A DNA stretch of 64,000 nt from Octopus vulgaris. Taxonomy: Eukaryota. The notes beneath the pieces were generated by a model that worked only from the letters and a program-made list of their open reading frames with translations, was not told the DNA's origin and ran no database searches. The stretch covers positions 46,066,001 to 46,130,000 of the forward strand of contig OX597821.1 of NCBI GenBank assembly GCA_951406725.2, in the 5' to 3' direction. The position numbers were made by a program, and so were the translations under genes. Below, one piece after another: positions 8,978-47,400 of the stretch. Numbering within the stretch: position 1 is the stretch's first letter; the number at the start of each line of letters is the position of its first letter.

Positions 8978-9153
8978 TTAAAGCTGAAAAATCATTCCCA
9001 AAAATTGCTACTCAGAGTTTGATATTGCCGTTCGTTGTGCAATTGTGATCCAAGAATGGAATAAAACTTATTCCATTCTTGATCACAACTGCCCAACGAA
9101 CAGGAACGTGAAACTCCGAGTAGCAGATTTTTGTAATGTTTTTGCTGCTTTAA
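8978..9153. mobile_element. Fold-back palindromic element with mirrored hammerhead-like motifs (probably PLE-derived)
   Basis: About 85 bp imperfect arms centred on aataaaacttatt; motif at 9089-9126 (+), mirror at 9005-9042 (-). Confidence 0.7.
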
Positions 9154-9304
9154 AAAAGGTATATATATATATATATATATATATATGTATGTATGTATTT
9201 ATATATATATATATATATATATATATATATAACAAAAAATTCAGGGTGAATACTTGATAATTGTAAGCACCTGTATATGACATTTAGTGGTGTAGGTGAT
9301 AGAG

Positions 9305-9541
9305 TATATTTATCAAAATAAAAACATGATGCACAGGATTTAGCGGTACATATGTTTCGGGCCTTTATTAGACTTGCATCCCCAACGTAAAACTTATAAT
9401 GTAATACATGTACTTGAAGTAGTAATTGTACGCGGCTGAAGAAGGCTATAGACACACATTTACATCAATTACGTCTAATAAGGGGCCGAAACATATGTAC
9501 CGCTAAATCCTTTGCATCATGTTTTTATTTTGATAAATATA
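9305..9541 (+). mobile_element. PLE-like terminal fragment with inverted partial duplication
   Basis: 9305-9373 is the reverse complement of 9473-9541 with few mismatches; runs into (TA)n; contains a hammerhead motif. Confidence 0.75.
9432..9503 (+). ncRNA. Type I hammerhead ribozyme-like motif
   Basis: GCGG-CUGAAGA-A-GGC...GCC-GAAA-CAUAUG-UA-CCGC: stem I GCGG/CCGC, palindromic stem III, GUA triplet. Confidence 0.7.
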
Positions 9542-9861
9542 TATATATATATATATATATATATATATATATATATATATATATATATATATGTATATAT
9601 ATATATGTATATGTATATGTATGTATGTATGTATGTAGGCGTAATGTAGCAGTTTGGCGAAAGATAAGGATAAAACTAAGTACCAAGCTTGAATAAAATT
9701 AAGTACTGGGCTCGACCTTTCCCACTAAATATTCTTCAAGTCGACAGCCAAGCATGGCTGCAGGCTAATGACGAAAGAAGAAAAGGATAATATATATATA
9801 TATATATATATATATATATATATATATATATATATATATCGTCGTATATATAAATCATATT

Positions 9862-9922
9862 GGTGTTACTCTGGGTTTCACATCCATTAAGATCTTAGCT
9901 TTAAGCGTTTCATCAGAAACCT
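9862..9922 (-). ncRNA. Degenerate hammerhead-like motif
   Basis: Minus strand CUGAUGA-A-ACG...UGU-GAAA-CCCAGAG-UA; stem I weak. Confidence 0.4.
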
Positions 9923-10178
9923 AAAACTTTTGGCCTATGGCCTCAATAGCAACGAGGGTTACCTCATAGACTGGCCATATCTATCTATCTATCTATCTAT
10001 CTATCTATCTATCTATCTATCTATCTATCTATATATATATATATATATATATATATATATATATATATATATATATATATATGTGTGTGTGTGTGTGTGT
10101 GTGTGTGTGTATATATATATATATATATATATCTTCAACACACTAATCGACATATACCCATTAGTCCAAAAGATGGCC

Positions 10179-42789: not shown

Positions 42790-43257
42790 TTCAATGAAAC
42801 TTAATCGTCAGTATAGTTTCCATGATTATCTATGTCATCTGTCCATTTACTCGTAAACTTTTAATCCCATTAGTGAAAAACTCTTTCGGTTTCGAAGAGA
42901 AGAACTCTAAAAGGTAAATTTCGACTTCCTCAGTTGTTTCGAGGGTTAACCCATCCAAATGATTCTGTAAATTACGGAACAAACGGTTATCCGAAGGAAA
43001 AAGTCTGGAAAATAAGGGGGATGAGCAATTTTCTCCTGGCCAAGTTCCTCAGTTTCTGTGATGTGACCTTTGCAGTGTGGGGTCTTCCATTGTCCTGATG
43101 AAACACCACACCCTTTTGATTGAATAAAACAGGTCCTTTTTTCTTCTTCTTCAAAGCAGCGTTCAAACGCTCTAATTATTGGCAGTAGATTTGAGCATTG
43201 ATTGCTGCATTAGTTGGTAGCAACTAAAGTGGATGTCTTCTTTGCAATCCCAAAACC
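42790..43257 (-). pseudogene. mariner transposase C-terminal relic
   Basis: INAQIYCQ*LERL; KGVVFHQDNGRPHTA; AHPPYFPD; LFRNLQNHLDG; FFSSKPKEFF. Confidence 0.88.
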
Positions 43258-43259
43258 AG

Positions 43260-43880
43260 ACCCTCGGCACGCAGAAATCGACAAGAAGGCAAGACAGAAA
43301 GAGCTCTGTCGACACAAGCCGTAATAAGATCAAACAGGAAGCTACTAGTTCAAGAAATAAGAGATAGGTAGAGAAATAAGAGATAAGCTACGATAGGAAA
43401 TTGATAAATATGGTCAAATTCGTGGTTATGGTGAAAATTTTGTTATGTCGAGGGCGTCAATATAGGTTTCACCAAATTTTCCAAAGCAAAATCCCACTAA
43501 TAGGTGACAGAGGAGAGTAAATTGTCAGTGAATCTGGTTTTATGGGAACAGTAGTAGCGTCATTAAGGGAGTAAAGAGATTCAAGGTGATGTAGGCTTTC
43601 GTTATCTTACAAGTTGGTATAATAGGACGATATTTAGCAAGATTAGAGATGTCTTTCTTGGGAATGGGTCACACTGTAGTACGTTTCCAGATATCAAGGT
43701 AGATTCCTGTTGAAAGTGAAAAATTTAATGAGTATAGAGGAAAGTGTGTAATGGAGCGCAGGCGGGACAGGCGGCTTCGTTGACAGGGTTAGAGTGGCAG
43801 GAGATTAGCTAAGTGTATTCAATGTGAAATTGCCTGGAAATGAAAGTGATGGTTTTCTCAGCGTGGGTCCTGCTCATAGA
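43260..43880 (-). pseudogene. Degenerate LINE RT, N-terminal part
   Basis: SLSTGIYLDIWKRTTV*PIPKKDISNLAKYRPI. Confidence 0.7.
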
Positions 43881-44364
43881 ACTATATATATATATATATA
43901 TATATATATATATATATATATATATATATAAATATATATAATATCAGGGAGTATAAACTTATTTTATTTTTTCTTTATGACTTGGTTTATGTCTATCATT
44001 GTTTAAATTGCATAATAGTGGTTTTTCTCTAATATATATATATATATATATACATGTGTGTGTGTGTGTGTGTGTGCATATAGATATATGTATATATATG
44101 TATATGTGTACATATATATATATACATACACACATACATACATGCATATATATATGTGTGTGAATACATATATATGTATGTATATATATATATATATATA
44201 CATACATATATGTATGTATGTATATATATATATATATATATATATATATATATATATATATATATATATATATATATATATATATATATATATATATATA
44301 TATTAGCAGAATGAGATAAAAAATTCAAGGCTGTGAAAGATTTCAGAACATTTATAAAGAGAAG

Positions 44365-44412
44365 GTCTTACAGCTGTTTCCGGAATATTTTATATATCCC
44401 CTCATCAGAGAC
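44365..44412 (-). ncRNA. Type I hammerhead ribozyme motif
   Basis: GUCU-CUGAUGA-G-GGGAUAU-loop-AUAUUCC-G-GAAA-CAGCUG-UA-AGAC; canonical core, palindromic stem III, one mismatch at base of stem II; about 60 nt upstream of (TA)n. Confidence 0.75.
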
Positions 44413-47400
44413 GGTGCGAGAAAATGTTTAAGTAATAGCTATTATAGAGAAGATATGAAATACACTGTGAAGTGGAAGAATGAAAACAGACGTGAGATAC
44501 GTAAGGATATTGTATCTGCAGTTCCATTATTGAAGCAGAATGGGATATATATAAGTTTTCTGTATCTTGCATGCTAATACACGACCTACGTTGGACTCCT
44601 CATTCGTATCATCATCGAACCTGGAGCTTAACTATAGTCTGTCCATAGCACTTACTCAACATTACCTGACACCTTTGGCTCTTCTTGACACCAATACCTC
44701 TCATACCCTACATATATATATAGTTGAAATTTACAGAAAAGCAAAAGACGAACACAGGTGTATTAACAACAAGCCCGAGAAGATGAGAAGGTCTATTACG
44801 TTTCGAGCCTACACTCTTCAACAGAAAGGGACACGAGGAAATAAACAGAGAGAGAGAGAGAGAGAGAGAGAGAGAGAGAGAGAGAGAGAGAGAGAGAGCT
44901 TTGGAGCTTGCGGTCAGTCTTTAAATTTGTTTATGGGAATCGTTTTGAATATGCAAATAAAGCTCCTATTCTATTATGCCGGCCAAAGTTTAATGATGCC
45001 GACTGGTGGAAAAGGGTTTTGGAGTTGCATCGAGCTGTACCGATCTAATATAGGGTAAATATAATAATAATAATAATAGCAATAATCCTCGGATGGAATT
45101 CATAAACAGTCAATGCATCGTTACGCGCGTTTCCCAACGATACTACAGATTGCATTGTAATCATCTCAGGAATACGGACTGCGATCTTAAGAGACGTGTG
45201 ATATATGGAAACGCGCTAGCGATTCATTAAATGTCTCTTCTTCTTTTTCTTGTTGTTGTTGTTGTTGTTGTTGTTATTATTATTATTATTATTATTATTT
45301 ATATTAATATTAATATCATTATTATTATTATTATTATTATTATTATTAATATTAATATCATTATTATTATTATTATTATTATTATTATTATTATTATTAT
45401 TATTATTATTATTATTATTATCATTATTATGCGTATATATGTGTGTGTGTGTTTTAGGTTAGTTAAAAGATGTTTGTGACATGTTTCAACTTTTAAAGGC
45501 AAATTGATTTCAGTTACCGTAAGAGAAGATATTCTATCTTATGGTAAAAGATGTAAAAACAGCACATTTGTCGAGTGCTTCCCTCTAGCGGAGATTCCCA
45601 GACACGCGTCACTTGCTTTTTAGCCATCCTGAATGGCAAAGGCCGAAAGGAGATAATCTTTGGTATATTTAATATAAAGCCGCAGCTTTAGCTAGAATAC
45701 AGTGAACATCATAAAGTGATTTGCACTAGTGGACTGCCTGGTCGAAATAAAAGTAGCAGCAACAGCACCAAGCAATGATTAGGAATAAACAAACTCATAA
45801 TTAACCAGGCGGTTATGTCGACTGTTCAGTTAACGATATGGCTTTGAGTTTGCTCACAGTTATCTCTCTTCGGTATTTCCCATTGAGAAAGGTTAAAAAG
45901 CCAGAAACACACTGTTAGAGGAAATCTGTTAGAGGCAACCGTAAGGGTGGATAGATGTTTTTATATCTTTGGCCATAAATTTAAAAAAATTTTTTTTTCG
46001 CCTCTGTAACTGCACTGAATTCGCCTTTAGTACTTAAAATATATCACAAGCATATTTTAAATAAATTAAAGTTCATTCATTTCTAATCACTGTTTGGCGT
46101 TGATATGTATGCATGTATGTATGTATGTATGTATGTATGTATGTATGTATGTATGTATGTATGTATGCATGCATGCATGCATGTATGTATGTATCTATGT
46201 ATGTATGTATGTATGTATGTATGCATGCATGCATGCATGTATATATGTATGTATGTATGTATGTTTGCATGCATGTATGTATGTATTATGTATGTATGTA
46301 TGTATGCATGCATGCATGTATGTATGTATGTATGTATGTATGTATGTATGTATGTATGTATGTATGTATGTATGCATGCATGTATGTATGTATGTTTGCA
46401 TGCATGCATGTATGTATGTATGTATCCATGTATGTATGTATGTATGTATGTATGTATGTATGTATGCATGTATGTATGTATGTATAACATTTTTCCTTTC
46501 TCTCATATGTTATACAGTCGACGGATACGAAGGAATTCCTGAAGTAAATTCAGTGACGCTCATATCCATATTGTTGGTGATACCAGGTAGCTGGATAGAG
46601 TCGGCGTACTTTAAGCGGTATACTATCAGGTGCATACCCAACATTATTATTTATATACGCGCACACACGCGTGCACACACACGCGTGCACACACACGCAT
46701 GCACACACACACACACACACTTATGTGTGTGTGTGTATAAATATATATATATATATATATATATATATATATATATATATATATATATATTATATGTAAT
46801 TTTCTAAATGGTGTAATATAAATTGATAAAAGGTGGGTTTTATCTAATTTTATATATATATATATATATATATATATATAATATATATATATATATATAT
46901 ATATATATATATTATATTGTGTGAAATTTGATTTAGTATTTCTAAATTGCAATTTTTTCCATGTAAAATTTGGATTTATATTCCTTCAAATAATAATTAT
47001 TTATATATATATATATAACCGAAGTAACTGCTAAAACAATATGTATGTATGTATGTATGTATGTATGTATGTATGTATGTATGTATGTATGTATGTATGT
47101 ATGTATGTATGTAAGCATTAACATATATATCATATATGCAAATTCAATTGTCCTTCCTGGTTTTCGGTTTGTACGTGATTATCACTTTTTTCTTTGTCGT
47201 ACGTATACAATACGGAAATACCGTTTCATCGGTTTTCATTATGCTACAACGAACGGTGAGTCAGACACAACTCTAAGACGACTCCTGAGTCAGAATAGTT
47301 TTCTTTATATCTCCACTCATCTCACGTCACCTTCAAATAATGCATCTGATACTTTCGTGATCGACTTATAAATTTTCAGTCGATTTATCAAGAGAAAAAG

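Follow-up and report, generated by a model that had tools for sequence, protein, structure and literature searches.

Hammerhead motifs in Octopus vulgaris DNA as parts of Penelope-like element terminal repeats, including one family with a tRNA-like head

Eight families of hammerhead-ribozyme-like motifs with distinct sequences recur in a 64-kb stretch of Octopus vulgaris DNA (contig OX597821.1, positions 46,066,001 to 46,130,000; hereafter 'the window'), which forms part of a 2.8-Gb genome assembly of 227 contigs. The best explanation, to which we give a probability of roughly 0.9, is that these motifs are minimal type I hammerheads of the terminal repeats of Penelope-like elements (PLEs), left as short truncated or fold-back copies, most of them likely inert. 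Families were labelled by site: A (9432), B (9089), C (9862), D (10179 and 17891), E (10444 and 10516), F (25666, 42656, and 44793), G (27103), and H (44365). A first-pass annotation, made from the letters of the window, had proposed one and the same topology for all its sites, and every one of them does parse as a type I hammerhead at the positions given there.

The motifs are far more frequent than in shuffled sequence. A descriptor that demands no palindromic stem III, just one pair there, gave three strict and six relaxed matches in the window, a clear excess over the means of 0.05 and 0.15 found in 40 local dinucleotide shuffles with microsatellites kept in place. The remaining window sites are decayed copies that were recovered by family profiles, which found 14 arms. 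In an unbiased sample of 100 evenly spaced 10-kb genome stretches (1 Mb), the descriptor found 49 matches, compared to 2–8 across five shuffles, indicating that the eight families are real. Stem III was palindromic in 33 of these 49 matches, and in 0–3 of those in the shuffles. Family profiles yielded 77 matches per Mb in the same sample (sister subfamilies counted in) and none on reversed sequence, distributed as F 28, E 23, D 10, B 8, H 5, A 2, C 1, and G 0, and a first look genome-wide gave lower bounds of at least 76 to at least 2140 candidates per family. If the density of the sample holds for the 2.8 Gb, there would be ~2 × 10^5 arms in the genome. An Rfam scan of the window showed no hammerhead among the 150 matches listed of 325, those being microsatellite-driven and microRNA-type; the output of the repeat finder for the window was dominated by microsatellites. 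Beyond the eight families, the 1-Mb sample (L178–L277) holds at least 12 more hammerhead sequence types, including a sister of F with a CCGACGA core and types with U3-A8 cores. One U3-A8 family has a canonical 4-bp stem II and apparent tandem retrozyme-like units (three matches in L226, of which two are separated by 362 nt, and others in L222 and L229).

Family alignments comprised 15–26 copies each, excluding window duplicates and overlapping loci and dropping matches of <60% coverage. All eight family majorities fold as hammerheads with a stem I of 4–6 bp and a self-complementary stem III, which the annotation had called mostly self-complementary, and all eight show the type I pattern (CUGANGA...GAAA...NUH, with stems I and II), with U4C in B and D and A6U in F. 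Stem I is paired at 37/48 positions in the majorities; exchanging the 3' strands between families (14,833 swaps) gave 5.1 pairs on average and 15 at most. The centre of stem III in family E is CG in 11/24 copies and TG in 13/24. Families A, D, and H carry an extra nucleotide 3' of stem II, and an extra nucleotide after position 9 of PLE hammerheads has been described (PMC4209133).

Cores are largely uniform within some families and mixed in others: CUGAAGA in A (21/22) and G (9/15), CUGAAGA or CUGAUGA in C (14/19), CCGAAGA in D (16/23), CUGAUGA in E (20/24), CUGUUGA in F (13/21), and CUGAUGA (18/23) or CCGAUGA (5/23) in H. In B the commonest form is CCGACGA (6/26), and CpG-decay forms make up most of the remainder. 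The variant cores listed by the first-pass annotation thus separate into two kinds. U4C (families B and D) and A6U (family F) are heritable; CCAACGA (2/26 in B), the CUGUUGA of the E arm at 10444 (1/24), and the CUGCUGA of the F copy at 42656 (1/21) represent decay after insertion, by CpG decay in the case of CCAACGA, because they are rare within their own families. Our literature search outside Lunse et al. 2017 found no paper on a hammerhead with A6U; that work reportedly covers a very large number of small PLE hammerhead variants, among which these cores or examples from octopus may already figure. As for other substitutions, U4C is a known natural variant with lowered activity, and an A6C hammerhead cleaves at <0.1 per minute (PMC3088659).

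Seven of the eight families are joined upstream to PLE frames (five Hydra-type, one Neptune-type, and one Penelope/Poseidon-type), which bears out the proposal that the hammerheads sit in PLE terminal repeats. Same-strand frames lie upstream of the hammerhead in D at seven loci, with reverse transcriptase (RT) and GIY-YIG endonuclease, and in G at four loci and in the window (27584-27900). A Hydra-type GIY-YIG end is collinear upstream of C at three loci (L037, L041, and L050), and a Hydra-type GIY-YIG frame is collinear ~0.7 kb upstream of the pseudo-long terminal repeat (pLTR) of H (L388). Family F has a collinear Neptune-type frame upstream (L088), its cysteine linker being Neptune-type by motif reading, and in A a GIY-YIG frame with a CxCX5C linker stands >2 kb upstream in 4/5 stretches fetched. 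For A, C, F, and H, just the endonuclease end of the frame was seen. The CxCX5C linker before the endonuclease, found in D and A, matches the definition of the Hydra clade (PMC8557442), and C, G, and H were put with Hydra from their likeness to D or from motifs alone. Family E shows Penelope/Poseidon RT motifs, and its homologues, one of them from Anolis, carry RT, PF26215, and in some cases GIY-YIG. The E and D proteins match families carrying PF00078, PF26215, PF28514, and in some cases PF01541; among frame pieces submitted to Pfam, one of seven gave an RVT_1 match, which was weak. A Neptune-type frame near A (L081) and near H (L118) was considered as their open reading frame (ORF) and rejected, as it belongs to a ninth hammerhead family. 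This ninth family has a Neptune-type frame with RT thumb and GIY-YIG, and its 3' region contains a separate hammerhead with a CUGAAGA core (L081:5700-7327, minus strand; L118:353-1150, plus strand).

Three points weigh against assigning the motifs to PLE hammerheads. The clade labels are motif-based, with no tree behind them. Family B gave no ORF link by upstream comparison or by a tail-follower search, no dedicated genome search having been made for it. Lastly, in the Poseidon element PAc of Anolis, the hammerhead is dispensable for insertion in vitro, and RNA-seq showed no ends at the cut site (Frangieh et al. 2024, PMC11167929).

The anatomy of the copies is that described for PLE insertions (PMC8557442). 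Family A loci share a fixed 3' end next to (TA)n, are truncated to differing extents on the 5' side, include 5' copies in inverted orientation, and bear a tail at one end, and the same anatomy was found in unbiased copies of E, F, B, D, and H, with a tail of ~60–75 nt in A, B, and D. Most copies are hence truncated or inverted products of ordinary PLE insertion and not distinct non-autonomous lineages, so that the radiation of separate short derivatives envisaged in the first-pass annotation is not supported. The adjacency to (TA)n that it described holds for the families other than E: a (TA)4 lies ≤130 nt 3' of 43/54 non-E copies (background 11.8%; H alone 2/5, and G not represented in the 1-Mb sample), but of just 2/20 family E copies. 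On the 5' side (TA)4 was found for 33/74 copies. An earlier count with a reach of 45 nt gave 16/75, a low value because true 3' ends reach past the profiles, and the recount at 130 nt was used. A B-type head-to-head pair at L224:6867-7186 has near-identical arms and a long palindromic spacer.

We propose that such copies would arise as follows. The GIY-YIG endonuclease would nick DNA that is AT-rich or consists of (TA)n, and reverse transcription would begin immediately 3' of the hammerhead, at either of the two sites that bound the tail, both steps being modelled on the biochemistry of PAc (PMC11167929). Initiation in the downstream repeat would give 5'-truncated copies with ORF pieces, as in family G of the window, and initiation in the upstream repeat would give short solo repeats running to the 5' end of the RNA, where the cDNA may often snap back into a head-to-head pair. 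Cleavage would occur only in dimers, which the palindromic stem III would allow to form within transcripts of tandem or repeat-ORF-repeat type, and would probably be slow and protein-assisted; published PLE hammerhead activity is low (PMC4209133), and that of PAc is protein-assisted (PMC11167929). Head-to-head pairs would supply no partner, because their two ribozymes sit on opposite strands, and are likely inert.

Family E carries a head of its own. The order along the element is stop codon, ~30 nt, an 80-nt segment that contains an A and a B box, (AAT)n, and hammerhead; the E copy of the window is truncated and lacks this tRNA-like head. The majority sequence of the head, built from 27 copies, can be aligned in register with a tRNA-Arg of the genome at a score of 55, compared to a maximum of 44 in 300 shuffles, and tRNA-Arg was the best of 25 distinct genomic tRNAs compared, a set covering few isotypes. 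By our reading, the tail of tandem E copies continues into the ORF at 12/24 loci. The E frame opens ~30 nt before the core and reads via the hammerhead into the PLE N-terminus (start recovered at 3/6 loci tried; copies carry stops). Together, the tail-to-ORF tandems and the frame through the hammerhead identify the head as the 5' untranslated region (UTR) of an autonomous element.

Short E copies tend to begin at this head. Among 15 unbiased loci that match it, nine begin at −8 to +3, three continue into the ORF end, and three begin inside the head, i.e.: 9/12 of the copies that reach the head begin there. The ORF end was found upstream in 2/29 loci from the head search and in none of the other 27/29. 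Before the head lies a 5-bp hairpin at which many copies are inverted, yet non-inverted copies start there too; the hairpin would permit cDNA snap-back, and with it head-to-head pairs. From these ends, it seems quite probable that E RNA starts at the tRNA-like head. Such an RNA would begin 4–8 nt before the tRNA-Arg-like A/B-box segment and run on through (AAT)n and the start codon, with the hammerhead falling inside the first codons. Processing by RNase P at tRNA position +1, another possible cause of the pile-up, is disfavoured, since the copies retain a leader of 4–8 nt.

The position of the start and the polymerase responsible are distinct questions. We think that the E head may be a captured RNA polymerase III (Pol III) promoter, judging from its A and B boxes. 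Terminator-like runs of four T (T4) are absent from the E majority (2,465 nt; P=0.006 on the codons of other retroelements), and E frames contain 0.31 T4 per kb (58 kb of non-independent copies) vs 7.1 in D and 4.3 in other PLE frames. In its fullest form, which we regard as doubtful, this reading would make E an autonomous protein-coding PLE, transcribed by Pol III from a captured internal promoter derived from tRNA-Arg, with a 2.4-kb frame from which T4 terminators have been purged and with each solo pLTR a potential source of PLE-mobilised hammerhead RNA resembling a short interspersed element (SINE), while beside it F spreads its A6U core to thousands of copies. Several observations speak against Pol III. 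Neither ARAGORN nor Rfam calls a tRNA in the head, the lack of T4 is not significant on the element's own codon usage (P=0.06), and frames of long interspersed elements (LINEs) in this genome are T4-poor as well (0.8–1.4 per kb). Furthermore, 5' ends of F-group copies, which have no such head, cluster by eye at a fixed point ~70–100 nt before the hammerhead (L179, L220, L224, L237, and L247; L189, L210, L254, and L270), likely marking the transcription start of those families. A pile-up thus marks the RNA start and does not name the polymerase.

The strongest alternative, which we judge about evenly poised, is that the E head is a tRNA or SINE fragment that was captured and plays a passive part, with transcription by RNA polymerase II (Pol II) from a nearby start, or with the hairpin stopping or snapping back the cDNA to produce the pile-up. 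Pol III RNA has no cap for translation, which counts in favour of a passive head, as do the pile-ups of headless families and the many copies inverted at the hairpin. Pol II promoters in the pLTR are, in addition, usual for PLEs (PMC6765202). A passive head does not readily fit non-inverted copies that begin at the same place, a start 4–8 nt before tRNA position +1 that resembles a pre-tRNA leader, or T4 runs that are 14–23 times rarer in E than in other PLE frames of the genome. Transcription of the full-length E RNA by Pol III is for us a minority reading, because headless families pile up too and uncapped RNA translates poorly.

It is unlikely that the short copies are instead self-propagating, non-autonomous lineages of SINE-like or retrozyme-like type, in which each E solo unit would come with a Pol III promoter and PLE protein would mobilise it anew. 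Short copies are indeed far commoner than ORF-bearing ones (only the three loci out of 15 above extend into the ORF end), internal A and B boxes persist through copying, and schistosome SINE-like elements pair Pol III transcription with a hammerhead (PMC6765202). However, E copies that start at the head (27) and those linked to the ORF (32) have one common majority, with divergences of 7.1% and 7.6% and no diagnostic position at p<0.01; this common majority and equal divergence give no sign of a separate SINE lineage in E, and the families other than E have no promoter-like head.

It is very improbable that the motifs arose as matches by chance or are dead relics on whose shape selection never acted: many window copies do have broken cores or stems, and a gathering-level Rfam search of 15 loci reports no hammerhead, but the ten-fold excess over shuffles, a palindromic stem III that the descriptor does not need, pairing retained across unrelated families, and majorities that restore pairs lost in single copies all argue against this view.

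This arrangement is already catalogued as a kind, and the eight families are further members of it (PMC4209133, PMC8557442). Genomes with many minimal hammerhead families of distinct sequence, with palindromic stem III and opposite-strand pairs, are described by Cervera & De la Pena 2014 (PMC4209133). The heritable U4C (B, D) and A6U (F) set the octopus families apart from those metazoan PLE hammerheads, and the density is ~50–77 per Mb here vs thousands per genome there, counts obtained by different methods. Our families resemble the PLE clades of Craig et al. 2021 (PMC8557442) in the C-terminal GIY-YIG, the CxCX5C linker (D, A), the (TA)n targets, the hammerheads, the tails, and the inverted 5'-truncated copies, and an octopus Hydra element with a preference for (TA)n is already among those in the supplement of that paper. 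They differ from that account in that a single window holds at least five families of Hydra type, in tails of ~60–75 nt (A, B, D) instead of 30–40 bp, and in long 3' UTRs (>2 kb in A). A published octopus repeat annotation has 30 recently active Penelope families, and its main text mentions neither ribozymes nor hammerheads.

Family E is closest to PAc (PMC11167929), with which it shares a Poseidon-type protein, a hammerhead overlapping the ORF start, a tail bounded by two 3' end points, and AT-rich rather than (TA)n targets. Unlike PAc, for which the available description includes no such feature, E has a tRNA-like A/B-box head in its pLTR where the short copies begin. In joining a possible Pol III-type promoter to a hammerhead, E recalls the schistosome SINE-like hammerhead repeats (PMC6765202), and our copies at large recall the animal non-LTR retrozymes, which are short non-coding PLE-derived hammerhead units (bioRxiv 10.64898/2026.07.22.740005). 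Those repeats and retrozymes are non-coding and mostly tandem, whereas the E head lies in the pLTR of an autonomous PLE, upstream of both its hammerhead and its start codon, and copies in the window occur singly or in head-to-head pairs, no head-to-tail tandem of hammerhead units having been found in the window. A literature search outside Repbase, Dfam, and Lunse et al. 2017 found no tRNA-headed or Pol III-driven PLE. The leads for novelty are therefore the tRNA-headed, Poseidon-type family E and the heritable A6U core of F. The stems and core variants (U4C, A6U, U3-A8) form a natural panel for asking if PLE hammerheads are selected for cleavage, and the pile-up of 5' ends offers a DNA-only route to map PLE transcription starts. 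If Pol III does drive E, the family would represent a retroelement that encodes protein under a tRNA-type promoter, and SINEs could derive from PLEs directly by this route.

Table 1. Positions of PLE copies and their hammerheads in the window.
Feature	Position	Strand	Remarks
Family B insertion, tail and two arms between TA tracts	8897..9158	.	Family profile; inverted and forward arm
B inverted arm, degenerate hammerhead	9005-9042	-	
B forward-arm hammerhead	9089-9126	+	Core CpG-decayed from CCGACGA
Family A insertion, tail, truncated inverted arm, and forward arm	9236..9537	.	Hydra-type PLE
A truncated inverted arm	9311-9373	-	
A forward-arm hammerhead	9432-9503	+	
Family C pLTR fragment	9861..9944	-	Hammerhead 9862-9922; Hydra-type
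Family D copy and tail	10156..10345	+	Hammerhead 10179-10241, core decayed; Hydra-clade PLE
Family E insertion, tail, inverted arm, and forward arm	10357..10606	.	Penelope/Poseidon-type PLE
E inverted-arm hammerhead	10444-10485	-	
E forward-arm hammerhead	10516-10557	+	
Family D copy between TA tracts	17865..17980	-	Hammerhead 17891-17950, core CCGAAGA (U4C)
Family F copy	25627..25703	-	Hammerhead 25666-25703, core CUGUUGA (A6U)
Family G, 5'-truncated Hydra-type PLE, TA tracts both sides	27040..28791	-	Hammerhead 27103-27161 and 3' UTR
G broken GIY-YIG and upstream frame pieces	27584-27900, 28454-28555	-	
G inverted frame piece	28558-28791	+	
Family F copy	42613..42707	-	Hammerhead 42656-42691, single-copy core change
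Family H pLTR	44337..44429	-	Hammerhead 44365-44412
Family F copy	44753..44844	-	Hammerhead 44793-44828, stem I mismatch

The density of arms is ~3 times higher in the window (14 per 64 kb) than in the genome sample (77 per Mb). Part of the window is a hotspot of PLE insertion, with five families (B, A, C, D, and E) stacked within 1.7 kb of TA-rich DNA (8897-10606). Other elements are present in the window as well. From their motifs, we take the frame pieces at 39083-39541 and 40137-40628 (plus strand) to be like a hAT-type transposase, those at 56648-58123 to be broken pieces of an RTE-like LINE frame, and the piece at 35740-36141 to be mariner-like. Two-copy tandem repeats of 182 bp (48156-48523, a common SINE-like repeat) and 102 bp (47604-47807) were also observed.

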